64,000 nt of DNA from an uncultured Solirubrobacteraceae bacterium (GTDB taxonomy: Bacteria; Actinomycetota; Thermoleophilia; Solirubrobacterales; Solirubrobacteraceae): contig CAWCBZ010000005.1 of assembly GCA_963793935.1 (NCBI GenBank), positions 75,139 through 139,138 on the forward strand, read 5' to 3'. Position numbers and translations under genes: made by a program. Below, in pieces: positions 11,135-53,606 of this stretch. Each line of letters begins with the position of its first letter. Position 1 is the first letter of the stretch. A model generated the notes under the pieces. That model did not search any database, was not told where the DNA came from, and saw only the letters and a program-made list of their open reading frames with translations.

Positions 11135-12769
11135 TCAGCTCACCTGCAGGTCGGGTGAGGTTGCGATCAGCATGCGCAGGGCGTTCTGGCGCATCGCCCG
11201 GTAGGGGCTCTTTTGCCATTTGGCCGTGACCAGGCCCTGCAGGCAGGACTGTGCGAAGACTTCGATCGAGGCCAGCGTTTCACCCGACAGCGCAGGGTTG
11301 CCCCAGTAGGCCAGCGCGGCTGCAAGAGCGGCGGCCGGTTCCTCGGTTTCGCTGTACTTCGCTTCGCCCGCGCCGGGCCACGGGTTGGGGTAGGTCTTGG
11401 CCGTTACGTAGCTCGCCAGTTCCCAGCGTGCCTTGGCCGTGGACGTGTCGAGCCAGCGCGTGAAGTCCCACCCGGACACGTTGGGCGGGTAGAACAGCTG
11501 CTGGCCAGCGCCGCTGCACAGCCATGACCATGCTGTCGTGTCGATCGGCCGGCCGATCGCGCGCAGCAGTCCGGCGTTGTAGACGACCGGCGGCGTGACC
11601 AGCTCCGGCCCTTCGAGGAAGTCCGGGTGCGCGAGAATCGCCTCGACGACCGGCCGGATCTGATGGCCCGAGCCGAGATACAGGCCCTGCAGCGACGCCA
11701 GCGTCTGCTCTGACGGCGGCGTCGGCACGAAGTATCCCCACAGCTTGGCGACGAAGAACGAGGCGTGCAGCGGGTGTCCCAGGCACAGGTTGACGGCGTC
11801 TTCCCACCCCCACTTGCCCGTCTGTCCGAAGATCGTCTTGTTCGCGTTGTCGTGGCGCGAGGCGACGTAGCGAAAGTTCTGCAGGCCGTTGCTTTCGGTC
11901 CAATCGGCGGTCCAGCCGGTGAGCGCGCGAGCCATTTCGCGTACGTCGTCCTCGGTGTAGGCGCCGCGGTCGGCGCCCAACGAGAACAGCTCCATCATCT
12001 CGCGCGCGTAGTTCTCGTTGGGGTCCCAGCGGTCGTTGTAGATCCCGTCGAGGAACACCAGCATCGCCGGGTCGACCGTGACGGCCATGAACAGGTCGTG
12101 AAAGCTGCCCAGCGCGTGTTCGCGAAACAGCGCGTTCTGATCGAGCATGCGCTGCTGGCTGTTGACCTTCTCGTTGGAGTTGGCAAACCAGTCGTGCCAG
12201 ATGAACGTCATCCGCTCGACCAGCTGCTGGTCGGAGCGCACCATGCGGTCCAGCCACCAGCAGTGATCCTCGCCCCACGCGTCGGCGGGAGCCAACGCCC
12301 TGCCTTCATCGTCGGTCGGCGCCGGGCCGTGCAGCACGGCGGCGCCGTTGGGGCGCGTGAGCGCCTGCACGGCCGCTTCGACCGGCTGGCCCGCGAGCGA
12401 CTCCGCCTGCCCGGGCGTCGGACCGAAGCCCGCCCGCCACAACAGCCGGCGAGCCTGCGCGGCCGTCAGCTGGGCGGTGACCGCCGGCGGCGCCACGGTC
12501 GAGGGCGAGGGCGGGTTGGCGGGGATCGGCGGCGGCGCCGGGGCTCCCGGCAGTCCCGCGGCGCTGGGCGCGGTCGCGGCTGCGGTTGGCTGGACGTGGG
12601 CGGCGGTCTTCTTGTGGTGCTTGCGGCGGCGGCGATGCCTGCGGTGGTGGTGCTTGCCGGGCTTCGACGTCTTGCCGTGTTTGGCCCGCGAGTCGCCGGC
12701 GGCGGCCTTGTTCCTGGCCGATCGCGCCCGCTCGCCCGAGCCGTTTCCCGCGCTCGGTCCCGAGCTCAT
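11135..12769 (-). CDS. DUF1800 family protein
   Basis: The long conserved core (LLWRAGFG, FIWHDWFANSN, ELFSLG, HDxxxKT) fits DUF1800, which is canonically paired with DUF1501. The listed N-terminus carries an unusual His/Arg/Lys-rich stretch, so the start is uncertain. Confidence 0.75.
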   Translation of the reverse strand: MSSGPSAGNGSGERARSARNKAAAGDSRAKHGKTSKPGKHHHRRHRRRRKHHKKTAAHVQPTAAATAPSAAGLPGAPAPPPIPANPPSPSTVAPPAVTAQLTAAQARRLLWRAGFGPTPGQAESLAGQPVEAAVQALTRPNGAAVLHGPAPTDDEGRALAPADAWGEDHCWWLDRMVRSDQQLVERMTFIWHDWFANSNEKVNSQQRMLDQNALFREHALGSFHDLFMAVTVDPAMLVFLDGIYNDRWDPNENYAREMMELFSLGADRGAYTEDDVREMARALTGWTADWTESNGLQNFRYVASRHDNANKTIFGQTGKWGWEDAVNLCLGHPLHASFFVAKLWGYFVPTPPSEQTLASLQGLYLGSGHQIRPVVEAILAHPDFLEGPELVTPPVVYNAGLLRAIGRPIDTTAWSWLCSGAGQQLFYPPNVSGWDFTRWLDTSTAKARWELASYVTAKTYPNPWPGAGEAKYSETEEPAAALAAALAYWGNPALSGETLASIEVFAQSCLQGLVTAKWQKSPYRAMRQNALRMLIATSPDLQVS

Positions 12770-23423: not shown

Positions 23424-24394
23424 TCACGCGGTCAACCAGCGCTTGGGGTTCTGCACGAAGATCGTGTCGAACGAGGCGTCGTCCATCGCGCCGGCCTCGC
23501 GCAGCGCCGGCACGACCTCGTCGAACACGAGCGTCATCGACCAGTTGCGGATCGCGCCCTGGCTTTCGAACACCTCGGCGGCCTCGGGCGGGAAGTAGTC
23601 GATCGTCGCGCAGAAGTCCTGAGAGATCATGCAGCCGCTCGGCGTGGCCGCGGCGCAGCAGCTCGATCGCCGTCGCGTTGCGCTTGTCGATCGGCAGGAA
23701 CATGTCCAGGCCGTAGCGGTCGAGCCCGACGTAGACGCCCTTGTCGATCAGACCCTGGATGTAGTCGACGTCGTCGGTGTCGCCGCAGTGGGCGATGACG
23801 ACCTTCGCGAGGTCGACGCCCTCCTCGGCGAAGATCTCGACCTGGCGCGGGCCGGTGCAGCGACGGCCGGCCGGGAGTGGGCCATGATCGGCGCGCCGGT
23901 CTGCACGCTCGCGCGCGCGACCGCGCGGTGGATCTTCTCGACGTTCGCGTTGACGCCCGGCCGCGTCGGCGGCGCACTTGAGGAACGCCGCCTTGATGTC
24001 GGTGCCCTGGATGCCCGTTTCGGATGTCGTCGACGAAGTGGTCGGCGATCACGTCCTCGTGCGGTTGACGAAGTAGTGCGGCAGGTAGTCGTAGGTGTAG
24101 ATGCCGGTGCAGGCGACGACGTGCACGCCGGTCTCGTCGGCGACGCGTCTTCCATGAAGCGTCACGTCGCGCCCGAGGAACATCGCGGTCGGGTCGACGA
24201 TCGTCTGGATGCCGTGCTCCTTGGCGCGGCCGAGCGCCTCGAGCAGCGCGGTCGTCGTGCTCGGCCGCCTCGTCGTAGCGGCCGGGCCACGCTCGGCGAC
24301 CGGCCTCGTCGCGGAAGCGCAGGTGCTCGTGCGCGAGCGTCAGCCCCAGCTCGTCGGCCTCGACGGGGCCCTGCACGGTCTGCACGTCGGACAT
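23424..24394 (-). pseudogene. Phosphotriesterase-related protein (PTER/PHP family), multiply frameshifted
   Basis: The N-terminus MSDVQTVQGPVEADELGLTLAHEHL (frame a), internal NVEKIHRAVARASVQTGAPIMAHS (frame b) and the C-terminus ...DDASFDTIFVQNPKRWLTA (frame c) are all recognisable, but they lie in three different frames with nonsense in between. Confidence 0.6.
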
Positions 24395-24417
24395 GCCATC
24401 CCTCCCGTCGGTTTGTC

Positions 24418-25988
24418 TAGCGCAGCGGCTCGCCCCAGTCGGTCTCTTCGCGCAGCTGCGCCTTGAGCACCTTGCCCGCCGGGGTTGCGCGGCAGCGGCT
24501 CGTCGCGCAGCGCGACGTACTGCGGAACCTTGAAGTCGGCGATCCGCTCGCGCGGCAGTGCGCGATGACGGCGGCCGACGTCGAGCTCGGCGCCGGGCGC
24601 GGGCACGATCACCGCGCCGACCTTCTCGCCCATCATCTCGTCGGGCACGCCGATCACCGCGGCCTCGCCCACGCCCGGCGCGCCGGCCAGCGCCGTTCTC
24701 GACCTCGATCGCAGTACACGTTCTCGCCGCCGCGGTTGATCATGTCCTTCTTGCGATCGACGATGTAGAGCAGGCCGTCGTCGTCGATACGCGCGAGGTC
24801 GCCGGTGTGCAGCCAGCCGTCGACGAACGTCTCGGCCGTCGCCTCGGGCTTGTTCCAGTAGCCCTGCACGACGTTCGGGCCGCGGACCAGCAGCTCGCCG
24901 ACGCCGCGTCTCGGGTCGGGCTCGATCGATCGCCAGGTCGACGACCGGCATCGCGAAGCCGACCGAGTCGGCGTGCTCGGCGGCCGTCCTCGTGCGGGCA
25001 GGAACGACGGTCAGCGAGGACGACTCGGTCAGTCCGAAGCCGTTGCCGACGCGCGCGTTGGGAAACGCGTCCTTGAGCTCGTGCACGAGCTCGCGGCGAT
25101 CGGCGCGCCGCCGTAGCTGACCCAGCGCACGCCGCTGAGCGTCGAGCCTCGGCGAACCGCGGGTGGCGCGTGCAGCGCGTGGTAGATCGCCGGCACGGAC
25201 GACGAGCTGGTTGACGCCATGCTCGCCGACGGCGGCGAGGAAGCCGTCGAGGTCGAGCGGGCTGGACAGGATCTCGACGCGCCCGCCGCCACTCGAGCAT
25301 CGGCAGCAGCTGGCTGTTGCAGCCGGTGACGTGGAACAGCGGCACGGAGACCAGCGTCGCCAGCGCGGCGAGCTCTCGAGCGCGGTCGACGTTGAGCACG
25401 CGAAAGCACGTTCTCGGAGTTGGTGAGGAAGTTGGCGTGCGAGGTCATCGCGCCCTTGGGAAAGCCGGTCGTGCCGCTGGTGTAGAAGATCGCCGCGAGG
25501 TCGTCGGGCGCGAGGTCGTCGACGACGATCGGCTCGCCGTCGGGAAGCGGCGCGTCGGGCACGAAGGTGAACGCGGCGCCGGAGTCGTCGACGACGATAG
25601 CTGACCTCGTCGTCGGTGAAGCGCGTGTTGACCGGCACGACGACCGCGCCGAGCGAGCTGGACAGCCGAAGAACGCGAGCACCCAGTCGGCGCCGTTGCC
25701 CAGGCGGATGGCCACGCGATCGCCGCGCTGCGATGCCGGCGTCGCGCAGGCCGCCGGCGACGCGCGCCGCGCCGATCCCACAGCTCGCCGTAGGTCAGCG
25801 AGCGCCCACCGCCGACCTCGACGATCGCCGTGGCGTCGGCGGTCGCGCTCGACGCTGGCGCGCAGCATGTGCACGAGCGAGGCGGGACGATCGCTGTAGC
25901 GCGCACGACCATCGGGGTCTCTGCGCACGCCGCTCTCGTCGAACGGATTGCGCCCGCGCGGGGCCGGCTCGACGCTCGTCGCCTCCAT
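24418..25988 (-). pseudogene. AMP-dependent synthetase/ligase (acyl-CoA synthetase), multiply frameshifted
   Basis: AMP-binding motif [64 protein letters not shown] and the terminal GKVLKAQLRE are all present. They are spread over at least 5 reading frames. Confidence 0.65.
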
Positions 25989-26092
25989 CACCGCCAGCTT
26001 ACTTCTTGATCGATATATGCCTATCGGCCTCGTGTCGCGCCAGTTGAGACGGACGCGCACGCCGGACGTCCGGGCTGCCGCGCGATAGCCGA

Positions 26093-27274
26093 CTAAAGCT
26101 GTTTTGTGTCCGTTGGCAAACCAAGCAGCAGGCGGCCGCCAAGCTCCCAGGTGGCCGGCGCGACCATCATGTGCTGCGTGGCCACGTGCACGTCGCGAAA
26201 GCGCCGCTGCAGCATGCTCGAGTCATAGATCGACGTGCCGCCGCCGGCGTGGTACATCGCGGTGACGACCTCGGCGGCGACCTCGGTGGCGTGACTGGCG
26301 GCGAGGCGCAGGCCGAGCCGGTGCTGCTGGGCCATCTCGCCTCCGCGCTCGGCGGCGCTCCAGGCCGCGTCTGCTTCGCCGAGCACGAGCGCGCGCGCGG
26401 CGCGCAGCGACGCCTCGGCGCGCGCGACCTGCGCCTGCACGGTGGCGCGTTCGGCGAGCGTCTTTCGCCCGGCGGCGGGCGTCTTCGCGCCGGCCAGCGA
26501 CGCGAGGTCCTCGATCGCGCCGCGCGCGATGCCCAGCGCGACGGAGGCGATGCCGATCGCCAGCAGGCCGAACAACGGGAACGAGTACAGCGCGCCGGGG
26601 TGCAGCGGCCGATCGGTGAACAGCGACAGCACGCGCGCCTCGGGCACCGTCTGCGCGACGGCCGTCATGTCGTGGCTGCCGGTGCCGCGCAGGCCGGACA
26701 CCGACCACGTGTCGATCACCTCGACAGCGTCGATCGGCATCAGCGCCAGGCGCACGTCGGGGCTGCCGTCGTCGAGCAGCGCGGGCTCCTCGCCGTGGTG
26801 CACGACGACGCCGCCGAGCACCCAGTCGCAATGCGTGACGCCGCTGACAAACGACCAGCGGCCGTCGACGACGAACGCGCCGTCGCGCCGCTCGGCGCGC
26901 CCGCGCGGCGCGAACACGCCGCCGGTGACAGAGCGTCCGCCGGCGTAGATGGTTTCGGCCTCGCGCTCGGGCAGGTACGCGCCGAGCAGGCTGCTGGTCG
27001 AGGCGACCATCGCGCACCAGCCGGTGGCGGCATCGGCGCGCGCGAGCTCCTCCAGCGCGCGCACCATCTCCGTTGGGCGCGCCTCGACGCCGCCGAGCGC
27101 ACGCGGCAGACACATGCTCAGCAGGCCGGCGTCGAGCAGCTCATCGACGAGCTCGCGCGGCAGCGCGCGCTGCCGCTCGATGCGCTCGCCGTGCTCGCCG
27201 GCTCGCGGCGCGATTCGCCGCGCCGCTGCGAGCGGCGACTCCGTCGTGCCGATGGTCTCGGTTTCGATCGCCAT
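26093..27274 (-). CDS. Acyl-CoA dehydrogenase family protein (possibly flavin-dependent monooxygenase oxygenase component)
   Basis: ACAD N, middle (WSFVSG) and C-terminal helical domains recognisable over 393 aa. Confidence 0.7.
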   Translation of the reverse strand: MAIETETIGTTESPLAAARRIAPRAGEHGERIERQRALPRELVDELLDAGLLSMCLPRALGGVEARPTEMVRALEELARADAATGWCAMVASTSSLLGAYLPEREAETIYAGGRSVTGGVFAPRGRAERRDGAFVVDGRWSFVSGVTHCDWVLGGVVVHHGEEPALLDDGSPDVRLALMPIDAVEVIDTWSVSGLRGTGSHDMTAVAQTVPEARVLSLFTDRPLHPGALYSFPLFGLLAIGIASVALGIARGAIEDLASLAGAKTPAAGRKTLAERATVQAQVARAEASLRAARALVLGEADAAWSAAERGGEMAQQHRLGLRLAASHATEVAAEVVTAMYHAGGGTSIYDSSMLQRRFRDVHVATQHMMVAPATWELGGRLLLGLPTDTKQL

Positions 27275-31275: not shown

Positions 31276-31388
31276 GTTCTCGACCCGCCGCCGTTTACGG
31301 CCGTCGGACGTCGAGCAATAGAATCGCTGGGCGCAGCGGTCGCCGCGCGCGACGGTGCATGCGACTCGCAAATCGTTAGGAGAAACGG

Positions 31389-31800
31389 ATGGGATTCGAC
31401 CAGTACCACGAGCCACCGGACGAGCTGCCCGAGCAGACGCGCACGTTCGCGCGCCTGTGCTCGTCGCTGACCGAGGAGGCCGAAGCGATCGGCTGGTACG
31501 AGCAGCGCCTGGCGATCGAGCGCGACCCCGAAGCCAAGGCGGTCATGTCCGACGCGGTCGGCGAGGAGTACAAGCACTTCAGCATGGACCTCGAGTTCCT
31601 TCTGCGGCGCACGCCGAAGTGGCGCGCAGATCGCCCAGGGCGTGCTGTTTCAGCCCGGCGACATCGTCGAGCACGGCGAGGCTGCCGAGGCCGGCGCCGA
31701 CGACGACGGCGACGAGGGCTCAGCCGCGGCGGCGGCACCGGCTCCCGCCGCGGCGGGCGGCTCGCTGAGCATCGGCAGCCTGCTTGGGGAGGGGCTATGA
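31389..31800 (+). CDS. Encapsulated ferritin-like cargo protein (EncFtn/Flp), interrupted by a 1-nt frameshift near 31626
   Basis: N-terminal 80 aa contain EAIGWYEQRLAIERDPEAKAVMSDAVGEEYKHFSMDLEFLLRRTPKW, the EncFtn metal-binding helices. The C-terminal cargo-loading peptide ...GSLSIGSLLGEGL* is encoded in the +1 frame and ends with TGA overlapping the encapsulin ATG (ATGA). Confidence 0.65.
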
Positions 31801-32612
31801 GCCATCTGCTGCGCGAGCACGCGCCGATCACCGACGACGGCTGGAAGCTGATCGACGAGGAGGCGCGCGAGCGCCTGCTGCCGGGGCTGGCCAGCCGGCG
31901 CCTGGTGGACTTCTCCGGGCCGCACGGCTGGGAGCACTCGGCGACGAACCTGGGACGCGTCGAGCGCGCGAACGTGAGCGAGCAGAAAGGCGTCGAGGCC
32001 AACCGCCGTGTCGTGCTGGCGCTGGTCGAGCTGCGCTCGCGCTTCACGGTCTCGCGCGAGGAGCTGCGCGCGGGCGATCGCGGCGCCGAGGACGTCGACT
32101 TCGAGTCGCTCGATGCGGCCGCACAACGCATCGTCGACGCTGAGAACACGGCGGTCTTCCACGCCTGGCCGAAGGCCGGCATCGAGGGCATCACGGCAAG
32201 CTCGCCGCACAAGCCGATCGTGCGCGGCAAGACCTTCGAGGACTACCCGGGCTGCGTCGCGCGTGCGGTCGAGCTGCTGCTGCGCAACGGAATCGCCGGC
32301 CCCTACGGGCTGGCGCTGGGACGCGAGGACTACACCAGCGTGGTGGAAACGGCCGAGCACGGCGGCTACCCGCTGCTGGACCACCTGCGCAACATCATCA
32401 AGGGCCCGATCGTGTGGGCGCCGGGCGTCAGCGGCGCCGTCGTCGTGAGCATGCGCGGCGGCGACTTCGACTTCCAGTCCGGCCAGGACCTGTCGGTCGG
32501 CTACGAGTCCCACGACGCCGACTCTGTGTCGCTGTACATCGAGGAGTCCTACAGCTTCCGCGTGCTGACGCCCGAGGCGGCGGTGGCGATCGCGGCGCCG
32601 AAAGGACGCTAG
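31797..32612 (+). CDS. Family 1 encapsulin nanocompartment shell protein (linocin M18-like)
   Basis: MSHLLREHAPITDDGWKLIDEEA..., GPYGLALGREDYTSV, DHLRNII.GPIVWAP, RGGDFDF.SGQDLSVGYESHD track the HK97-fold encapsulin family along its whole length. 271 aa. Confidence 0.85.
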   Translation: MSHLLREHAPITDDGWKLIDEEARERLLPGLASRRLVDFSGPHGWEHSATNLGRVERANVSEQKGVEANRRVVLALVELRSRFTVSREELRAGDRGAEDVDFESLDAAAQRIVDAENTAVFHAWPKAGIEGITASSPHKPIVRGKTFEDYPGCVARAVELLLRNGIAGPYGLALGREDYTSVVETAEHGGYPLLDHLRNIIKGPIVWAPGVSGAVVVSMRGGDFDFQSGQDLSVGYESHDADSVSLYIEESYSFRVLTPEAAVAIAAPKGR

Positions 32613-33472
32613 GCCTTCGCCGGCAGGCCGCTCGCTACGGGCGACTGCGCGGCGGGTCGCGAGAGCAGCACAGCGCCGATGCTGACGGCTGCGAACGCGA
32701 GGATGCGCACGGCGCCGAGCGCGCCCGAGGGCACGGGCTCTTCCAGCACCAGGGTGCCGGCGAGGATCGGCAGCGCGTTGGTCAGCAGCTTCGCCAGGCC
32801 GGCGACGGTCAGCGCGCCGCCGGCCTGATAGCCGAGCTGCAGCAGGCTCGTGCCGAGCGTGTAGCCGAGGATCAGCGGCACGAGGAAGGCGATCCGCGCG
32901 CCGCCCTGCGTGGCCAGCTTGGTCGAGATGTCGCCGGCGGAGAACAGCAGCCCTCCGGCGATGCCGTTGGCGACGTCGACACCGAACAGCGCGCGACCGA
33001 AGAGGACGATCGCAACCGCGAGCACGCCGGTCGCGCAGATCCACACGATCACCGCGAGCGTCGAGCCGCTGTGCCCTTCACCGCCGCTGCCGTTGACCAG
33101 CGAGACAGCCAGCGCCACGAGGCCGAGCACCGCGAACGCCACGCCCACCCACTGGCGCGAGTCAAGCCGCGGACCGCCCAGGCGCACCGACAGGAACGCG
33201 AGCAGCCCGATCGCGCCCGCGGCGACGCTCTGCACGAGCGCCAGCGGCGCGAGCGCCAAGGCGACCGCGTACAGCGCGAAGCCTCCGCCCTCCATCGCGA
33301 AGCCGAGCAGCCAGCTGCGGTCGGTCAGCAGCAGGCGCAGCGACTGCAGCGGGTGGCGCAGCGTGAGCGCGGGCAGCGCCGCGGCGGCGTCGTGCTCGCG
33401 CAGGTAGGCGAGGCTCGCAAGCGTGGCCGACAGCAGTGCGAGCAGAAACGCGATGGCTGTCGCGACGCGCAT
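32609..33472 (-). CDS. Integral membrane protein (possibly DMT/EamA-like)
   Basis: 9-10 hydrophobic helices over 287 aa. No specific motif recognised. Confidence 0.45.
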   Translation of the reverse strand: MRVATAIAFLLALLSATLASLAYLREHDAAAALPALTLRHPLQSLRLLLTDRSWLLGFAMEGGGFALYAVALALAPLALVQSVAAGAIGLLAFLSVRLGGPRLDSRQWVGVAFAVLGLVALAVSLVNGSGGEGHSGSTLAVIVWICATGVLAVAIVLFGRALFGVDVANGIAGGLLFSAGDISTKLATQGGARIAFLVPLILGYTLGTSLLQLGYQAGGALTVAGLAKLLTNALPILAGTLVLEEPVPSGALGAVRILAFAAVSIGAVLLSRPAAQSPVASGLPAKA

Positions 33473-37901: not shown

Positions 37902-38009
37902 GCGACGCGCTTTTGTTGGGAGGCGTAGAGTTCGAGCGACCCGTTTTCACTCGACATCCGGAATAGCTCTTACCGCGGCCGACCGTACCTTGCTGAGAGG
38001 ATTCTGAAA

Positions 38010-38615
38010 ATGCCTTCATCGCCGGCTCCCGCACCTGCACCTCCACCGGCCTTTGCGTGGGATGGGCTCGGCCAGTTCAAGGCAGGAGGCCGATTTCTCG
38101 ATGGCTATCCCTCAGACGTGCGCACCTTCTACTCGCCGGTGGACAACGTCCATCAAGTGCTCGTCTCGCTGCTGGCATCGACGCAGAAGTCGATCGTGCT
38201 GAACATGTACGGCTACGACGACTCAGACCTCAACGACATCATTCTCGAAAAGCTCGAAGACGACCATGTGTATGTGCAGATGAGCCTGGACAAGTCTCAG
38301 GCGAGCGGGAAACGTGAGCGGAGCTTGCTGGCGAAGTGGAAGAACGACGCCGCCGGCAACTCGATCGCGATCGGGCACTCGAGCAAAGGCGCGATCTCGC
38401 ACATGAAGATTCTGATCGTCGATGGCGTTTACACGGTGCGCGGATCGACCAACTGGTCGCTCGGTGGCGAGCAGGATCAGGACAACGAGCTGACGATCCA
38501 CAACAACGCCGTCATCGCCGCCGAGACGCGAGCGGAGCTCGACCGCAATCATGACGAAATGCTCAAGCAGATGGCCAAGGCCAGGTCGACTGGCCCCCCG
38601 GCGGGGAAACAATGA
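38010..38615 (+). CDS. Phospholipase D-like (single HKD) domain protein, Nuc-like
   Basis: HKD motif SHMKILIVDG....GSTNWS. One PLD domain of approx. 170 aa, implying a homodimeric Nuc/BfiI-type fold. Lower GC than flanks. Stop overlaps the next gene's ATG. Confidence 0.65.
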   Translation: MPSSPAPAPAPPPAFAWDGLGQFKAGGRFLDGYPSDVRTFYSPVDNVHQVLVSLLASTQKSIVLNMYGYDDSDLNDIILEKLEDDHVYVQMSLDKSQASGKRERSLLAKWKNDAAGNSIAIGHSSKGAISHMKILIVDGVYTVRGSTNWSLGGEQDQDNELTIHNNAVIAAETRAELDRNHDEMLKQMAKARSTGPPAGKQ

Positions 38616-40098
38616 GCGGCGAGCCTGACCTGTCACTCAAGCGACTGAACGACATCAAGCACATCGTCGTGCTGATGATGGAGAACCGATCCTTCGACCA
38701 GATGCTCGGCTATCTCAAGCGGGACGGAATGCCCGACGTGCGCGGGCTCGACGGCACGGAGTCGAACCCCGACGCGCAAGATACGGAGCACGCGGTGTTC
38801 GAATGGAGCGCCGAAGACACGGTGTTCCACCCCCTGCAAGATCCGACCGGCAAGATCCTCGACCCCTGCCATTCCAAGGGATGCGTCGCCGAGCAGCTGG
38901 CCGATGGCAACCGCGGCTTCATCAAGAACTTCATCGCGACGCGCACGGACAAGGACGGAAACGCGGTGAGCATCCCCGAGGAGTACCACGCCCTGCCGAT
39001 GGGCCACTACGGGTCACAGCACCTTCCGATGTATGACTTCCTCGCGCGCAACTACACCGTCTGCGACGCCTGGCACAGCTCGGTCCCAGGCGACACTTGG
39101 CCGAATCGGCTCTTCGCGCTCGCCGGTCGCGAGGGGCCCAAGGCGCTTGCGCCGCTGATGGAGCGCATCAAGGAGGAGTTCAAACACGAATTGCACCTGC
39201 TGCAGAACGCACCGATCTACGACGTCGCGACCTTTCCCGACACCTGGCTGCCGACCAGTGGCGCTGGTACTCCCATGATCCCGCGACCCTGCGCGCAGCC
39301 GACGATCGCTATCGCCAGTTCGGCGAGCGCGGGAACTTCGCGTTCTTCGACCGACGGGCGGTAAGCATTCTCACGGAACTGCTGGAGAGCCCGATCGTCA
39401 GCCCCGACAGCTTCCTCGACGACGCGGCCAGCGGCAGGCTGCGCGAGGTCTCGTGGATCGATCCCAATTTCATCGACCTGAAAGTCCTCGAGACGGACTC
39501 CAACGACGACCACCCACCCTCGGACGTACGTGCCGGGCAATCGCTGGTCTTGGAGGTCTATGAGGCGCTGAGGAACAGTCGCGATTGGCAGGACACGCTG
39601 CTGGCGATCGTCTATGACGAGCACGGTGGGTTCTACGACCACGTCGCGCCGCCGGCGCTGGGGTTCGAGGACAGCTCCGGTTATCAGACCTTCGGCGTGC
39701 GCGTGCCCGCCCTGCTGGTAGGGCCACGCGTGCCAGCAGGTGTCTGTCACACGCAGTTCGATCACACGAGCCTGATCAAGACGATCTTGCTGCGCTTTGC
39801 CGAGCAGCCCCAGGAGGCGATCGCCCAGATGGGTGCACGCGTCGCGCATGCCGAGCATCTCGGCGTTGTGCTGGGCGACGAGCCGCGTGCGGCGATCCCT
39901 GACAACGAGGACGCTCGCAGCGCGATCAGCGAATGGCGGGCGAGGACCAAGGCGGCGAGGCGAGGCACGCCGCCCGATCAGAACCCGTTGGCGTGGGACG
40001 GGGCCGGCGGCGCCGTCGGCCTGCACGAGTTCCAGGAAGACTTTGCTCGGTTTGCACTTTCGATGCGCAGGGCGGGGCTTCCCTATGGAGAGCCTTGA
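38612..40098 (+). pseudogene. Phosphoesterase family protein (non-haemolytic phospholipase C / acid phosphatase, PF04185-like) with one frameshift near 39250
   Basis: HIVVLMMENRSFDQMLG, PNRLFALAG (frame 1) and then WIDPNFID..DDHPPSDVRAGQ, IVYDEHGGFYDHV, GVRVPALLVGP (frame 2). Total approx. 495 aa, as expected for the family. Confidence 0.65.
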
Positions 40099-40120
40099 TC
40101 CCGCGTAAGCGCTGTCAGCA

Positions 40121-40531
40121 CTAAGCCCCTTTCTTGGGGTCGCCTCCGATCTGCTCAGCGGCTCTCGACGCTGCCTGCTGGGCGTCGTCTTGCTTGTCTC
40201 CGGGAACGAACGCCTGAACAGCGGCGAGCTTGGCGTGCGCTTCACTGGCGTCTTGCGCGAGACCCTTGCTTTGATCGGTGCCGATCTTGATGCCGAGGTA
40301 GGCGCCAACCACAGCCGAGATCACGCCGAAAGCAGCAGTCGTCAACGGGATCATCGTGTTGGCGTCCTTGCCACTGTCGATGAAGGCCATCGTCGAGATC
40401 GCGAGCGCCGTGATCGCGAACACGCCGAACAGCACCGCGACCAGGCCGCCGACGCTTTGGATGCTCTCGGCCGTTGGCAAGACTTTGTTATCTCCCGATC
40501 CGGCCTGGTGCTGCCCCACTTGAGTCGCCAT
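40121..40531 (-). CDS. Hypothetical small membrane protein
   Basis: Two hydrophobic helices flanked by charged regions. No homology recognised. Confidence 0.35.
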   Translation of the reverse strand: MATQVGQHQAGSGDNKVLPTAESIQSVGGLVAVLFGVFAITALAISTMAFIDSGKDANTMIPLTTAAFGVISAVVGAYLGIKIGTDQSKGLAQDASEAHAKLAAVQAFVPGDKQDDAQQAASRAAEQIGGDPKKGA

Positions 40532-40740
40532 CCGAGTCCTCCCTTGCGCGCAGTTTGCGCATATTGGGGAAACGTTCGACTGAGCTTACTCATTCCGACT
40601 GAGCGGCGGATTCTGCCAGCTCGGTATATCGGCTGGTCGGTTTGTGTGAGACGCTGTTAAGCAGTTACCGACACGGCTCGTCGAGTGTCGACTAGGCGGC
40701 GTTCGCTTCTGGGATCTCGACCTGCTCAAGCCATTCCGGC

Positions 40741-40823
40741 CTAGCAAAGCTTCAGGGAGGGCGAAGTGCGCCAGCTTTTGCGTGCGTGCTTGCGCGGCGC
40801 CGACGTCTACTGCGGCACTGAGG
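40741..40823. repeat. Direct repeat copy A (approx. 85 bp, about 88% identical to 41478-41562)
   Basis: ctagcaaagcttcagggagggcgaagtgcgccagc...ggcgccgacgtctactgcggcactgagg recurs 737 bp downstream with a few substitutions/indels. Confidence 0.7.
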
Positions 40824-41090
40824 CAGCGGGCCTGCCGGGGGCGGCTCAAGCGCCACCTCTACTCAGAGAGCAATCCGAGGTCGCGTCTGGGGCACGCAGC
40901 CTCAGTTCAAGTGGTCGCTATCACGGTGCGGGGTCTCCGTCGTCACCATCCGGCTCGTCTCCGATCCGACCATAAGGTCCAATGCGGAACGCTGGATCGT
41001 TGGGTCCACTCGGCGGCCCGCCCCCGCCCCGCGTCATGTAGAAGCCGATGACAACTACCACGACGACCGCTATGCCGATGATCGCGTCTT

Positions 41091-41374
41091 TTATCGCCAC
41101 CAAGTTTTGCGCATCCGTCGGCCGACAGGTTTTTCAGGCACGTTGACGAGGCGCTCGTTGAAGGTCCAGCGCAGGCCTTCAGCCGTGCCGACGTAAAGAC
41201 CCGGCTTGCCGTAGAGCAGGCGCTTGTGTTCGAGCAGGCCGTCGCGAACCAGCAGCGATAGGCAGGCGTAGGCCCAGTTGCGGCCCATGCCAAGCGGAAC
41301 ATCACGTGCTCGGCAGAGGCAGCTCCGATCCGTACCAGCCAGCTGACGATCTGGGCATCGCGGTCTGTTTGCAT
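41091..41374 (-). pseudogene. Remnant of a winged-helix DNA-binding protein gene (two frames)
   Basis: MQTDRDAQIVSWLVRIGAASAEHVMFRL (one frame) followed by ...AYACLSLLVRDGLLEHKRLLYGKPGLYVGTAEGLRW (another frame) together look like a wHTH/MarR-type recognition domain split by a frameshift. Low GC. Confidence 0.3.
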
Positions 41375-41477
41375 GGCGCCTCCTTGCGGCGATCGACTTG
41401 AGTACTTCCGACTAGATGTCGATCAGAGGCAGCTATAGACCCCCTGACAATTTCGAGCTAGCGCAAGCCAACCGCAG

Positions 41478-41562
41478 CTAGCAAGGCTTCAGGGAGGGCG
41501 CGAAGCGCGCCAGCTCTCACGTGCTTGCTTGCTCGGCGCCGACGTCTACTGCGGCACTGAGG
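41478..41562. repeat. Direct repeat copy B
   Basis: ctagcaaggcttcagggagggcgcgaagcgcgccagc...ggcgccgacgtctactgcggcactgagg. Indels break any common reading frame, so likely non-coding. Confidence 0.7.
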
Positions 41563-41665
41563 GGAGCAGAGATGCCGAGCGGGCTCAGGCGCTGCTGCCC
41601 CTAAGAGCTTGCTGTTGGCCCACCATGAGCCAGCGGGGTTGAGCTGAGTGCTTACATAGCCCCCG

Positions 41666-42331
41666 TTAAGGAGCCGTCACGGTGCGCGGACCGTCGCCTT
41701 CCAGCCAGTAAATGCGCCCAGGAACGGCAGCCAACGAGCGATAGTCGATCGTTGCAGAGCTCGCAACGTGCTGAGGATCGCGCGAGCCGGCACGGAGCTC
41801 GAAGACATCGTTGACGGTCGGGGTCGCTTCTGCACCGGCCGTGATCCAAGCCACTGTGCCCTTTGGGGTAAGCACCAGGTTCCTTACCCCGCCCTTGGGC
41901 GATGGAAACTGGCCAGCGGCCGCGCATTCCCGCGATTTTCCCTCCTGAACATTCACTCGGCAAACCTTCCAAACATCGACTGGAGAGGTCCCGCCGATCT
42001 CCAACGCGTAGGCCGCATAACGCCCTGCGACGCTCAAGTGGCTAAGGGTGACTTCAAGGTCGGGCCCCGGCATTTCATCGCCCAAGCGGGTGAATCTTCC
42101 CGATGGCCGCCACAAGGCGAACGTGCTCTGGTAGGGAATTTCCGCGACGTGGCGCTGTCGGGCTTGCACGACGCGCAATTGCTGCGTTTCGGCCAGGGTG
42201 CGACACCGATACTTCCGGCAGGAAGGCGCGACACGGCGCGCACTCGCTGCCGCGAGAGGCCACGCGAGCCCGAGCGGCACCACCAGCGCAACCGCCCCAA
42301 AGCGAAGCATTCGCAGGACGCTATAGCTCAC
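41666..42331 (-). CDS. Secreted hypothetical protein, translationally coupled to upstream giant gene
   Basis: Signal peptide MLRFGAVALVVPLGLAWPLAAASA. Start codon overlaps the stop of 42331-45954. No known domain. Confidence 0.5.
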   Translation of the reverse strand: MSYSVLRMLRFGAVALVVPLGLAWPLAAASARRVAPSCRKYRCRTLAETQQLRVVQARQRHVAEIPYQSTFALWRPSGRFTRLGDEMPGPDLEVTLSHLSVAGRYAAYALEIGGTSPVDVWKVCRVNVQEGKSRECAAAGQFPSPKGGVRNLVLTPKGTVAWITAGAEATPTVNDVFELRAGSRDPQHVASSATIDYRSLAAVPGRIYWLEGDGPRTVTAP

Positions 42332-45300
42332 TACGTCGTCTTGTGTCGATAAACATAAAAGATTGGCCTCGGCATATTACCGGGGTTGAGCAACCCTGAA
42401 TCTTGATGCCCACTCGACTTCGCTTCGCCTCTCATCTCGTAATAGTAGAAGCTAGTGATCTGACGGCTCTGACGCGTCAGCTGGTGCGCGCCATCCTCGA
42501 CATAGGCGTGCATGATCCGCAGTGCGTTCGTGCTGCTTGCAGCCGGCTTATTTACGTATTTGTTTGAGAAAATCACGCCTTGCTCGCTCAGCCAGATGTC
42601 TGGCAGCTTACGAGCTTTGGTCACTTTATCGATCTCCTTGCGGAATGCCTTAAAGCGACTCCACCATTTGCCTGGTTCCTTCCATTCCTTCGTGCCCGCG
42701 CGAAGGCCGTCCGTGTAGGTGTGCCAGGCCCACCGTGCTGCCTGCGGATGGCTCATCCCAAGCAGGTATTTATGGAAATATTTACCGCCCGTGGTCTTCC
42801 CATTGCCCGCTTCGGGCATCTTTGTATCAGAGAAGTCCCCGGCCGCCACGAGGCAGTTGTGGTTTTTCGGCGCACAGAGCGCGTCCAGCACCGCCCAGTA
42901 TTCTCCAGCTAGTTCAGCCTTTGTCAGTTCGCTCGTGGGTTGCGTGGGATTATTGGGCTCATTCCACGCGGTAAATAGGTTGACATTTTTCAAAACCGGG
43001 TTGGTCAAGAATTCAGTGACGGCCGTGGTGTATTCAGCGCGTTCCGGTGGAGTGCTGCAGCTCTTCGTCGCCGATTCCCCGACTTTTGAGTGCGCGATCC
43101 ACGACCCATCGCATCGCTCAAAGGAGATCAGCGGCTGACCGCCGCCTGGAAGTGCGCGGACTTTTTCCACCCATTTTTCGACGTCTTTGAGCTCTTGTTC
43201 TTGTGCCGTACCCCCATGGGTGCCCGCATATACGATGTCAAACGGCACAGTGCGGCGGACACGTTTCACATGAAGGCTTTTGAAAGTACCCTTGCCGAAA
43301 TATTCGAAATGCGTCCCTTCAATGACATGGTTGTTGTCTGAGATGCCGTACTGCGCCGGCGCTAGGTCCGGAATGCTTTTTGCCACCAGCGGCGCGAATG
43401 AGCCTTCTCCTTCTTCTTCTTCTTCTTCTAGGTTCGCTTCGTTTTCCGGTTCTGGATCTTCTTCGCCGCAGTATTCAGTGGGTACATAACACGCTCCTTC
43501 TGCAACTTCTTCCTGGGCTTCGAATTCCGAGGAGCCTTCTTCTGCTTCGTCAGCTGGTTCAGTGTCGCTCGTGATTTCGCCGAGCGCGTTGTAACAGTAC
43601 GTCGTCGATCCGCCTTCTTCGCCCGGTGCGTCCGCCACGACGGTCTGCCCTACATCAGTTTCGGGGTTGCAAGTCGGGCTGGCTGGCGCTTCATAGGCGT
43701 ATGAGGTGATTTCGTCTTCGCTGCCTGGCGTGCTGACCGTGCCATTGACGATGCGCCGCGTAGACGTTACGCGGTCACTTTCGTCGTAGGCGATGATATA
43801 GGTCCCGCTAGGGTCGACGATTTTGTTGAGCAGGTCTTCGCTGGTGTATCCGTATTTCGTTTCGTGGCTTTCTGGACCGGTGACGGTCGTCAAACGCGCC
43901 GAGCCGTCGTACGTATAGTTCCATTCTTCGCCGTGAGCCCCGTTGATTTTCGTCACGTAGCCTGAGAAGGGGTCACGAGTCAGCGTCAGTTCGTTGCCGT
44001 GTGTGTCGCTCAAGCCCGTCAGGTGTTCGTACGCGTATGAGAGAGAGATCGTGTTGCCTTCCCCGCTTGGATCAACGATCTGTTCGGGGAAGCCGTCGTT
44101 GTCATACTTCCAATCGGTTTCAGTTTCTGGGTAGGTGACGGTCCGCGTGCCATTTTCATGTTCGATCAGCGTCGGCGGTTCTTCGCCGGTTGTCGTGAAC
44201 GCTTTGTCTCCCGCGCTTGGCGCCCCATCGGCGGACGGGTTTCGGTCGTAACGGCGATCGGAGCCATCGGGCTGTTGGACGATCGCCGAGCCGTCCCATC
44301 CGGTGTGGTAGAGGATGCCGTCTTCACCTGTGCTCAGCCGCCAAAGGTGCATCGCGCCACCGGCGATCTGATCGTACTGGCTGTTGTAGTAGCGGACCAA
44401 TTCCGTTTCGTAACCTTCGGTTTCGTAGCGCATTTCGGGATCGTTCACAAAGAGGTTGCCGTTGACGACGTTGACGCCCATCGTCGCGCCGTAGCCGATT
44501 GAGTCTTCGATCAGCGTCTGGTCAGGCTGGCTACCGAGATGCGGCTCATAGAGCACTTCGACAAACGGTTCCGGTGTTTCTTCGGGGCTGTCGGTCTGCT
44601 CGAAGGCGTAGTAAGTCGGCGTCGTCTCATTAGCGGCCTTCAGTAGAACCCCGTGATTGGAGCTGGGATTTCTGATCCATTCTTCGACTTGCGGCGTGAA
44701 GCCCCAACTGACAAATTCTCCTTCGTTGGCAGGGCTGACGGTTTGTTGGCCGATGGGCGTCGAGCCAAAGTCGCCGCCGGCGCTGGACCAGGGGGTTTCG
44801 TAGGCCGACTGGTTCCACGTGACATAGTCGGTGAAGTCGTGCGATAGGGCGAAGGCCTGGATATCCAGGGGTTCTTCGCCGACGTGCCAGTCCTCCCATA
44901 GCGCGAGGCGCGAGCGAAGGACGTTGGCGTCCGTCGGAACGCACGTCATATCGAAGTGGGTGACAGTGCGCGCGACGTGTTGGGGCGATTCAGAGTCAGC
45001 GCCAATGAACAGCGGGCCGCCGCATTCCTGAGCGTTGGCCAAGTCTTGACTGATGATCGCGCAGTCTTCGCCTTCGGTGTAATAGACTTCAGGGTCGATC
45101 ACAACCGGAAAGACTCGCTTGGGGCTGCTCAGCCATGCCTTGTCGAGTACTAGAGAGAGAGTTGAGCCGTCGCTGCTCAATGTGTAGTGCACGGGACGGC
45201 TTGATCTAAAGGAACGGTTCGGCGAGGAGTCGGTGACGGTAGGAGGAGCCAGCCAGTACGCCCTCCGCCCCGCCGTGTTCGCGATGTCCACCCTTCCGCT

Positions 45301-45954
45301 GGGACGCAGCGTCGCATGAAGTCCGGGACTCAGAGAGAGCGCGTAGCGATACGTCGTCGGGGCCGCGCGGCTTGCCAAGGAGAGCGTCTCGCGGACGCTG
45401 TCGGGCGACGAGACGTAGGAGACGCTGACGCCCGGCAGAGCGCCGGCATAGGAGCGGCGGCTGCCCACCGCAGAACCTTCTGCCTTGCTGGCGCCTTCCA
45501 GTGCAAAGGAGAAACGCTGGCCGCTCGGCCCAACCTCGATCGGGCCGCTGCCCAGCGAGGCGGGCAGGCTGATCGGAACAGGGGTAGCGGCCGGGTGCCA
45601 CTTGCCGTCGGCCGAGCGTTGAAGGCGGTTTTCGATCGCATGCCAGACACCGTTGACCCGATAGTTGATCGGATGGGAATAGATGTGCTGAGAACGGGTT
45701 CCGTCGGCTAGCTGGTAGGTGTCTGAGGTAGCTGTCCTCAAGCTTGGGATCTCTCGCGGAGCCGCTTCGCCCTGCCGATCGGGGCGGGCTGCCGTCGCCG
45801 TGTTGCCCGAGGCTGGCAGCGCGCCGAAGGCCAGCAAGCCAAGCACCGCGCAGGCGAGCAGGTAAGCGGTCGGATGCAGGCGGCGGTCCGCGGGTCGCTC
45901 GACCTGCCGCCTCAAGCGACACCAACGCGCGCAACTACGCAGCGACGTACGCAT
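42331..45954 (-). CDS. Large secreted Rhs/WapA-like YD-repeat protein with C-terminal clan GH-A glycoside-hydrolase-like domain
   Basis: 1207 aa. N-terminal signal/TM. ENRLQR segment resembling the DNRLRE-domain N-terminus of Gram-positive Rhs proteins. YD repeats (YDRNPSADG, YTYDGSARLTTVTG, YGYTSEDLLNKIVDPSG, IAYDESDRVTS). Acidic (E)6 linker. C-terminal domain has FTAWNEPNN (acid/base) and IWLSEQG (nucleophile) spaced like a GH5-type TIM barrel. Codon usage is A/T-richer than the genome. Confidence 0.65.
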   Translation of the reverse strand: MRTSLRSCARWCRLRRQVERPADRRLHPTAYLLACAVLGLLAFGALPASGNTATAARPDRQGEAAPREIPSLRTATSDTYQLADGTRSQHIYSHPINYRVNGVWHAIENRLQRSADGKWHPAATPVPISLPASLGSGPIEVGPSGQRFSFALEGASKAEGSAVGSRRSYAGALPGVSVSYVSSPDSVRETLSLASRAAPTTYRYALSLSPGLHATLRPSGRVDIANTAGRRAYWLAPPTVTDSSPNRSFRSSRPVHYTLSSDGSTLSLVLDKAWLSSPKRVFPVVIDPEVYYTEGEDCAIISQDLANAQECGGPLFIGADSESPQHVARTVTHFDMTCVPTDANVLRSRLALWEDWHVGEEPLDIQAFALSHDFTDYVTWNQSAYETPWSSAGGDFGSTPIGQQTVSPANEGEFVSWGFTPQVEEWIRNPSSNHGVLLKAANETTPTYYAFEQTDSPEETPEPFVEVLYEPHLGSQPDQTLIEDSIGYGATMGVNVVNGNLFVNDPEMRYETEGYETELVRYYNSQYDQIAGGAMHLWRLSTGEDGILYHTGWDGSAIVQQPDGSDRRYDRNPSADGAPSAGDKAFTTTGEEPPTLIEHENGTRTVTYPETETDWKYDNDGFPEQIVDPSGEGNTISLSYAYEHLTGLSDTHGNELTLTRDPFSGYVTKINGAHGEEWNYTYDGSARLTTVTGPESHETKYGYTSEDLLNKIVDPSGTYIIAYDESDRVTSTRRIVNGTVSTPGSEDEITSYAYEAPASPTCNPETDVGQTVVADAPGEEGGSTTYCYNALGEITSDTEPADEAEEGSSEFEAQEEVAEGACYVPTEYCGEEDPEPENEANLEEEEEEGEGSFAPLVAKSIPDLAPAQYGISDNNHVIEGTHFEYFGKGTFKSLHVKRVRRTVPFDIVYAGTHGGTAQEQELKDVEKWVEKVRALPGGGQPLISFERCDGSWIAHSKVGESATKSCSTPPERAEYTTAVTEFLTNPVLKNVNLFTAWNEPNNPTQPTSELTKAELAGEYWAVLDALCAPKNHNCLVAAGDFSDTKMPEAGNGKTTGGKYFHKYLLGMSHPQAARWAWHTYTDGLRAGTKEWKEPGKWWSRFKAFRKEIDKVTKARKLPDIWLSEQGVIFSNKYVNKPAASSTNALRIMHAYVEDGAHQLTRQSRQITSFYYYEMRGEAKSSGHQDSGLLNPGNMPRPIFYVYRHKTT

Positions 45955-46280
45955 ACCCAGCCTCCCTCATAAGTGCGTGTGGAGCCGCAGCTCCTATGTC
46001 CCCCGGTGCTTCGCGGAGAGCCCTGTCCGAGCTAATGCGCAGGTCTATTGCAGATTCGCTTGCCTGTCAAGACCCAAATAACGGGACGTCGACATTCATA
46101 CGACGCGATGTCGATATTTGGGCTGCGCGCGCCAGGTTGAATGAGCGCGGAGCGGGTACACAGAAGTGGCACCCGGCCGAAGCACGGTCGCGCTAACGCA
46201 ACTGAGAGGCCATACCGGACAGGGCATGAGGCCTCCGGCTCGGCCGGGTGCCAGTGCAAAGCCTAACCGGCACTTCTTGA

Positions 46281-46355
46281 GGGTGAGCGACGGGACTTGA
46301 ACCCGCGACCGCCTGGACCACAACCAGGAGCTCTACCAACTGAGCTACGCCCACC
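46281..46355 (-). tRNA. tRNA-His (GTG)
   Basis: Reverse complement GGTGGGCGTAGCTCAGTTGGTAGAGCTCCTGGTTGTGGTCCAGGCGGTCGCGGGTTCAAGTCCCGTCGCTCACCC folds as a cloverleaf. Anticodon loop TTGTGGT, encoded G-1, T-loop GGTTCAAGTCC. Confidence 0.85.
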
Positions 46356-46383
46356 ACGGGCCCCGCAGTCTAGCGCCGGGCGC

Positions 46384-47124
46384 TCAGCCCCTGCGGGCGA
46401 TCTGCAACGCACCGACCACGCCGTCGCCCCAGCTATCGAGCGCGCGCAGCGCGGCCTCGACGCGATCCTCGGTCACGTCCTGCCAGGCTGTCGCGGCGCC
46501 CGGAGCATCTGCGTCGGCGCCCGGCGCGCCGCCCTCGCGAAGCACGACCAAACCGCGCCCGATCAGCGAGTGCACGGCCGCCTCGCCGAGCGCCAACGAC
46601 TCGGCCGCTGAGGCGTCGCCGAGCCGCTGCGCCGCCATGCGCCACGCCTGCGCCAGCGTGACCGGCGCGCCGTCGACGATGCCCAGCAGCTCCAGCGCGA
46701 GCGAGTCGGCGAGCAGCCGCGGGTCGGCCGCTGCGCCGCCGGTCGGCTGCGCCGCGGTTTCAGCAGCCCTGCCCTCCCCCTCCGCATCCGCGCCGCTCGC
46801 CGCGACGGGCGCATCCGTTGGAGCCGCAGCCTGCGCGCCCGCGCCCGCGCTCGTGCCCTGCCTGACGGCCGCGAGCACGCGCTCGGTGACGTTCTCGCTG
46901 CGCCGCTGCGCGTTGCGCCAGCCGCGGCCCATCGCCAGCTCGGGCATCGACAGCTTGGGGCCCTCGAGCACGGTGATGGTGGCTTCGTTGGAGTTCCACT
47001 TCTGTTCGCCCTCTTCGAACCACTCCTCTTTGACCCACGGCACGAGGATCGCGGCGACCTGCGCTTCGCTCTGGTTGAAGCGGCAGACCGTGTGCGGGAA
47101 CTTGCGCAGCTCGAGGTGATACAC
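46384..47124 (-). CDS. Hypothetical protein
   Basis: 246-aa ORF with good codon bias. N-terminal 80 aa non-repetitive (MYHLELRKFPHTVCRFNQSEAQVAAILVPWVKEEWFEEGEQKW), Ala-rich C-terminal half. No family recognised. Confidence 0.45.
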   Translation of the reverse strand: MYHLELRKFPHTVCRFNQSEAQVAAILVPWVKEEWFEEGEQKWNSNEATITVLEGPKLSMPELAMGRGWRNAQRRSENVTERVLAAVRQGTSAGAGAQAAAPTDAPVAASGADAEGEGRAAETAAQPTGGAAADPRLLADSLALELLGIVDGAPVTLAQAWRMAAQRLGDASAAESLALGEAAVHSLIGRGLVVLREGGAPGADADAPGAATAWQDVTEDRVEAALRALDSWGDGVVGALQIARRG

Positions 47125-53532: not shown

Positions 53533-53606
53533 TGCCCCCGGCTGGACTCGAACCAGCAACCCCCGGCTTAGAAGGCCGGTGCTCTATCCAGTTGAGCTAC
53601 GGGGGC
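53533..53606 (-). tRNA. tRNA-Arg (TCT)
   Basis: Reverse complement GCCCCCGTAGCTCAACTGGATAGAGCACCGGCCTTCTAAGCCGGGGGTTGCTGGTTCGAGTCCAGCCGGGGGCA. Anticodon loop CTTCTAA, T-loop GGTTCGAGTCC. Confidence 0.85.

Follow-up and report, generated by a model that had tools for sequence, protein, structure and literature searches.

A family-1 encapsulin operon, in which an EncFtn cargo gene adjoins the shell gene on its 5′ side, was identified in the window, a stretch of 64,000 nucleotides with a G+C content of 68.5% from an uncultured Solirubrobacteraceae bacterium. In the assembly, one extra base at 31626/31627 interrupts the cargo gene, and the EncFtn domain is read through into the shell as a single ORF (Table 1). 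The locus has the make-up of a standard two-gene iron-storage operon of this family: the cargo gene is translationally coupled through ATGA to the gene for a shell protein of 271 aa. Good characterisation exists for EncFtn encapsulin operons, and that of the window belongs to an ordinary type which is already well understood. In this layout the cargo frame equals the shell frame +1, so that an insertion of 3n+1 bases anywhere behind the final shell-frame stop would align the preceding cargo codons with the frame of the shell. As stops are seldom supplied by GC-rich DNA, a fusion ORF would be the result, and the 407-aa ORF is owed solely to the extra base in the assembly. This base probably is an error of the consensus or the assembly and not biology.

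Table 1. Features of the encapsulin operon and position of the insertion burst in the window.
Feature	Coordinates	Strand	Evidence
Insertion burst in the phosphotriesterase-like and AMP-binding ligase genes, outside the operon	23631..25838	-	Comparison with L048
Shine-Dalgarno-like AGGAG, 6 nt 5′ of the cargo ATG	31378..31382	+	Read from sequence
EncFtn cargo codons 1-79 (M1-R79)	31389..31625	+	PF22277 and TIGR04535 matches; alignment to 33bf_A and 5da5_A
As-sequenced 407-aa read-through ORF (EncFtn N-part, nonsense stretch, shell)	31389..32612	+	
One-extra-base site (G31626 or C31627)	31626..31627	+	DNA of relatives, L048, metagenome contigs
Out-of-frame read-through stretch, 57 aa with 22 Arg	31626..31796	+	Codon-position GC; differences from relatives
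EncFtn cargo codons 80-136 and TGA	31627..31800	+	Translation, composition HMM, third-position substitutions, repaired TIGR04535 match
Cargo-loading (targeting) peptide GGSLSIGSLLGEGL	31756..31797	+	Cargo frame; solved EncFtn chains, relatives, PMC11202242
Shine-Dalgarno-like GGAGG inside the cargo 3′ end, 4 nt 5′ of the shell ATG	31788..31792	+	Read from sequence
Family-1 encapsulin shell gene, 271 aa, intact	31797..32612	+	NF041155 equivalog, PF04454, no indel against L048

The shell protein matched the NF041155 equivalog over the whole profile (1-261/261) with 285.2 bits at a cutoff of 100. Residues 137-407 of the 407-aa ORF covered the same positions (1-261/261) with 283 bits, a complete family-1 shell, and PF04454 was matched with 265 bits by the shell and with 263 bits within the long ORF. 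The nearest solved shells were 9ry4_A0 (E = 4.9e-69) and 7odw_A (E = 9.9e-64), and an HK97 fold and an icosahedral cage are predicted from the similarity to them. By analogy with the characterised homologues, the cage would capture EncFtn decamers via the targeting peptide, and the product may be an iron-oxidising, iron-storing nanocompartment. In Solirubrobacteraceae MAGs, close relatives already carry the annotation of family-1 encapsulins.

The cargo was recognised by PF22277 at residues 5-79 of the 407-aa ORF, with 65.1 bits as sequenced and 70.8 bits after repair (cutoff 27). Repair extended the coverage of the TIGR04535 profile from 1-74/114 to 1-113/114 and raised its score from 66.5 to 79.4 bits, which does not reach the curated cutoff of 125; the low score reflects divergence from that subfamily model, not an absent part. 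Solved EncFtn chains were matched at E = 1.7e-19. Residues 5-135 of the repaired protein align with 33bf_A, a solved 140-aa encapsulated ferritin-like protein, and residues 2-135 with the EncFtn of Haliangium ochraceum (7oe2), its targeting peptide GSLGIGSL included. The residues E30, Y37, E60, and H63 align with E32, Y39, E62, and H65 of the solved chain, and correspond to the Glu, Tyr and Glu-x-x-His of the ferroxidase centre, whose roles are described (PMC11202242). All four lie 5′ of the break. Lost behind it are the linker, the targeting peptide and approximately the last 15 of the crystallographically ordered residues (7-96 of the chain in 5da5).

The codons 80-136 comprise the end of the folded domain and an acidic linker of Ala, Gly, and Asp, and are shifted by one base relative to codons 1-79. 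As assembled, the targeting peptide with its stop (GGSLSIGSLLGEGL∗) is therefore off-frame from the EncFtn domain, and it returns to the same frame once the base at 31626/31627 is removed. In the alignment it corresponds to GSLGIGSLKGE of the solved EncFtn chains, and the published targeting consensus is SLGIGSLK(R) (PMC11202242). Its conservation in homologues, on which the original prediction had relied, was found in the solved chains and in the cargo of more than 40 relatives, which end in GSL[GS]IGSL[RKL]G and whose stop overlaps the shell start as NTGA. In the window the cargo TGA (31798-31800) overlaps the shell ATG (31797-31799), forming ATGA at 31797-31800; the read-through ORF follows from this overlap, as had been proposed. 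The GGAGG in front of the shell ATG may allow shell initiation independently of the upstream frame. The same layout of cargo gene and adjoining family-1 shell gene is found in more than 40 relatives. On the 3′ side, the shell gene (stop TAG at 32610-32612) and a convergent gene for a 287-aa membrane protein (32609..33472, -), whose orthologues have no Pfam match, overlap at their stop codons. The gene order shell, 287-aa protein, DUF2630, and MaoC is kept in four related loci (L048-L051).

Both the operon and a cargo gene broken by a single-base indel had been read from the DNA beforehand. The operon is borne out at its coordinates by the PF22277, TIGR04535, and NF041155 matches, and the indel by 19 relatives, by L048 and by four metagenome contigs. 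The sign of the indel had to be reversed: instead of one missing nucleotide, as was assumed, the window carries one extra. The codon starts of the N-terminal part are 0 mod 3 and those of the C-terminal part 1 mod 3, a shift that calls for a gain of one base (or a loss of two) and not for a loss of one. The 1-mod-3 frame reads ...AQIAQGVLFQPGDIVEHGE...GGSLSIGSLLGEGL∗, and beside the read-through frame the cargo frame can be followed as AQIAQGVLFQPGDIVEHGEAAEAGADDDGDEGSAAAAAPAPAAAGGSLSIGSLLGEGL∗. In the DNA alignment, 19 relatives show TGGCGCG-AGATC or TGGCGCC-AGATC where the window has TGGCGCGCAGATC. With the longer context, they read AAGTGGCGCG-AGATC or AAGTGGCGCC-AGATC, encoding K W R E/Q I, at the place of AAGTGGCGCGCAGATC in the window. 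In a gene-by-gene comparison with L048 over 12 syntenic genes (~9.8 kb), the only indel was a single 1-nt insertion in the window at 31626. Metagenomes were searched with two exact flanks and 0-3 bases allowed between them; four contigs matched both flanks, and all four carry one base (G) where the window has GC.

The break was placed at 31622/31623 by the composition HMM and at 31626 by the alignment with relatives. Removing either G31626 or C31627 restores an EncFtn of 136 aa with the sequence ...KWRQIAQG... or ...KWREIAQG..., and the true junction is KWR[E/Q]IAQG, not KWRA-QIAQG. Homopolymer slippage was rejected as the origin of the extra base, for the site (GCGCGCAG) contains no homopolymer and the longest run in the window is at most 6. 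A link to the neighbouring GATC, possibly through methylation-related base-calling error, was dropped as well, since GATC occurs 572 times in the window and the proximity is thus uninformative.

With the shell protein as query, 43 loci were collected from species-representative genomes, nearly all of them MAGs of Solirubrobacteraceae or Solirubrobacterales. The original prediction had proposed to look for an intact EncFtn in related genomes, and a single-frame EncFtn was found directly 5′ of the shell in 38 of the 43 loci; the cargo genes of L048-L050 are intact as well (130-145 aa). Within the genome-locus comparison a broken cargo was seen only in the window and in L042 (MFD04944.bin.1.309), where the EncFtn gene has two frame changes. 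Altogether the EncFtn is intact and in a single frame in about 45 related loci, and each of those that align over the site has one base at this place. Conspecific sequence was found neither in the genome scan (best shell identity among the 43 loci 94-95%), nor in the protein database (at most 93-94%), nor among metagenome contigs (at most 85% nucleotide identity), and the intact state is therefore established for the relatives, not for the window strain. Exact look-ups of four proteins of the window (the 407-aa ORF, the shell, the MaoC-like protein and the acyl-CoA dehydrogenase) gave no match in the assembly collection.

The Arg-rich stretch between the two domains (ADRPGRAVSARRHRRARRGCRGRRRRRRRRGLSRGGGTGSRRGGRLAEHRQPAWGGA) is the product of a frame that never evolved as coding, as base composition and substitution pattern both show. 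Between 31626 and 31796, the three codon positions have GC contents of 0.89/0.86/0.56 when read in the read-through frame, compared to 0.86/0.56/0.88 in the cargo frame. The composition HMM, which uses codon-position G+C and a coding model (~0.72/0.51/0.90) in agreement with the long ORFs of the window, leaves the frame at 31622/31623 and returns to it at 31796/31797. The differences from seven close relatives behind the break cluster at the third positions of the cargo frame, which are the first positions of the read-through frame; counted by cargo-frame codon position, they amount to 2/9/20 against L001 and 3/6/19 against L003. These 57 residues are no evolved linker. At this base composition 57 codons free of stops have a chance of 0.30, so that the missing stop needs no further explanation.

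The insertion is not the only frame disturbance in the window. The phosphotriesterase-like (PTE-like) and AMP-ligase genes are each split over several frames between 23365 and 26060 (-). As reference L048 was used, a locus on a 1.22-Mb JGI contig which is syntenic with the window at 22.3-35.8 kb and in which both genes are intact (319 and 521 aa). Compared with it, 23631-25838 carries approximately 24 one-base and 5 two-base insertions and 3 frame-changing deletions (binomial p = 2.6e-6), and the insertions are mostly single bases and mostly not extensions of homopolymers. The nucleotide identity to L048 in this burst is 82.5%, compared to 72-88% in the 12 intact neighbouring genes, which are free of indels except for the EncFtn one.

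Natural decay of the two genes was considered, since the FAA-hydrolase gene found next to them in L048 is missing from the window. It was judged unlikely on account of the ratio of insertions to deletions (about 9:1), the lack of excess substitution and the codon-position signal kept within each piece; gene decay in bacteria is generally deletion-biased. The pattern rather resembles the product of an under-polished long-read consensus. The FAA-hydrolase gene lies between the AMP-ligase and an acyl-CoA dehydrogenase in L048 (3903-4754) and is absent at ~26060-26093 of the window, where the junction abuts the end of the burst; a burst beside a structural difference would fit a stretch that is poorly supported and varies between strains.

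A second isolated frame break was found in a gene for a PF04185 phosphoesterase (phospholipase-C-like) at 38612-40098 (+), which is split near 39251. Profile positions 1-145 are located in the ORF 38612..39364 and positions 223-353 in the ORF 39097..40098, and by frame arithmetic either a 1-nt deletion or a 2-nt insertion is present. The composition HMM flagged further frame switches without nearby stops, of which two, the burst and the PF04185 gene, are real frame breaks. The switches at 12711, 48496, 56896, and 58225 were rejected as frameshifts and correspond to ordinary gene boundaries or low-complexity N-termini. The stretch of ~38000-46400, which resembles an integrated island, has a G+C content of 57-63% compared to about 70% and a weak codon-position signal; its end is marked by a tRNA gene (46282-46354, -). 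Another tRNA gene is located at 53533-53606 (-).

Other proteins with both domains occur in the database. The best 120 matches to the 407-aa ORF were 117 shells of 268-281 aa and three two-domain proteins, namely P0086 (397 aa, L046/L047), P0096 (396 aa, L045), and P0114 (408 aa, L044). The DNA of each of the three has a frame change inside the cargo linker, and their targeting peptides (GESLGIGSLRGDER∗, GSESLGIGGLREATS∗, and GGTSLGITNNKTGAGS∗) lie in the other frame and run up to the shell start, with an NTGA overlap. They are frame-slip read-throughs of the same type as that of the window. Their slips lie later, in the linker, and leave the whole folded EncFtn in place, whereas the window slips at residue 80, inside the folded domain. 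P0096 and P0114 derive from ENA assemblies (ERZ25039578 contig_32968 and ERZ25039555 contig_1456, respectively), in which the slipped EncFtn frames led to 'fusion' calls of 396 and 408 aa. These two and L042 are all long-contig metagenome assemblies. The 397-aa read-through ORF of P0086 (gene 1501-2694) is identical in two independent Logan runs, SRR24974073 and SRR24974057, and its frame change coincides with a perfect 10-nt tandem repeat (GGCCGCCGGC x2). P0086 probably represents a true frameshift allele and no error, and on both grounds real lesions of this type probably exist.

Whether the broken cargo gene reflects a sequencing error or a real lesion had been left as alternatives by the original prediction, and error is now favoured because of the insertion-biased error pattern elsewhere in the same window: like the insertions of the burst, the EncFtn lesion is one inserted base outside a homopolymer, and the suspect region of this assembly holds about 24 changes of this kind. 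A real lesion would be a genuine, very recent mutation in the strain or population, which truncates EncFtn after residue 79, and is considered unlikely. It would take the extra base as the assembly gives it, and it has a precedent in the P0086 allele, shared by two runs and marked by a tandem duplication at the point of its frame change. It also fits the isolated position of the insertion, which is separated from the burst by 5.8 kb and five genes free of indels; this isolation counts against error, as errors would have to be unevenly spread. Spontaneous insertions of a single base are uncommon outside homopolymers, however, and the substitutions show a pattern of purifying selection on the cargo frame. 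No further lesion is found downstream, where the targeting peptide and the ATGA overlap are intact, and because nothing else has decayed the mutation would have to be extremely recent. If it is real, about 15 of the last folded residues and the targeting peptide are lost, the shell is made from its own ribosome-binding site and stays without cargo, and probably some aberrant Arg-rich chain of 407 aa is made in addition, so that the iron-storage compartment is in effect knocked out.

Far less probable is a functional use of the long ORF, either as a bacterial counterpart of the archaeal Flp-fusion, in which covalent tethering replaces loading by the peptide, or by a programmed +1 ribosomal frameshift at CGC-G-CAG which would recover the intact cargo. 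The ferroxidase residues E30, Y37, E60, and H63 do precede the slip, the shell part is complete, an internal start at the shell GGAGG could yield mixed fused and unfused particles, and three more two-domain ORFs are present in the protein database. Against a fusion stand the non-coding composition and the substitution pattern of the join, as well as its length, 57 aa with 22 Arg compared to a linker of 8 aa in P. furiosus (PMC11202242). The three database proteins slip at different positions while their targeting peptides remain in the other frame, and they are independent accidents which form no lineage. Programmed frameshifting was rejected, since none of the ~45 relatives has the frame change, and hence no conserved site exists, and since CGC cannot re-pair on GCG; a slippery motif is also absent, as are a stop and any obviously rare codon behind the site. 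Just as improbable is that the base is real and the strain makes an EncFtn-shell fusion beside unfused shell from the internal GGAGG/ATG, giving mosaic particles with covalently tethered ferroxidase domains. This would be an independent, frameshift-born route to an architecture so far reported only in Archaea, and the P0086 allele in two runs would then hint at recurrence in high-GC Actinomycetota.

Taking the extra base as a probable assembly error, the case bears on the annotation of such operons. In high-GC genomes with an NTGA overlap of cargo and shell, any 3n+1 indel in the cargo tail would create a plausible ORF with PF22277 and PF04454, and such an ORF can wrongly be taken for a Flp-fusion encapsulin of bacteria. 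This holds for all four cases examined, the window and the three database proteins, and caution is advised for two-domain EncFtn-shell calls in MAG catalogues. The assembly of the window needs polishing at 23.6-25.9 kb, at 31626 and at ~39.25 kb before its gene content is read.

The original prediction likened the cargo-shell fusion to a form from some archaea, and Flp-fusion encapsulins have indeed been reported, only from Archaea (PMC8346489; PMC11202242). Like the archaeal Flp-fusions of Pyrococcus furiosus (PF1192/PFC_05175, 5n5e, 2e0z) and Sulfolobus, the window has an EncFtn-type domain N-terminal to the shell in one ORF. The archaeal proteins are fused in frame through a linker of ~8 aa, lack a targeting peptide (PMC11202242) and are kept across lineages, whereas the window has an out-of-frame join of 57 aa which does not evolve as coding and a targeting peptide in the other frame, and its fusion is shared by none of the ~45 related loci. 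The closer counterparts are the EncFtn (FLP-TP) systems of Rhodospirillum rubrum (Rru_A0973) and Haliangium ochraceum (Hoch_3836), represented by the structures 5da5, 7oe2, 9ry4, and 7odw. As in these systems, the cargo is located directly 5′ of a full-length family-1 shell gene and comprises the E/Y/E-x-x-H ferroxidase residues, a disordered acidic linker and a C-terminal GSL(G/S)IGSL. The operon of the window differs from them in the cargo ORF cut by one extra base and in its uncultured Solirubrobacteraceae host; no further difference of kind was found.
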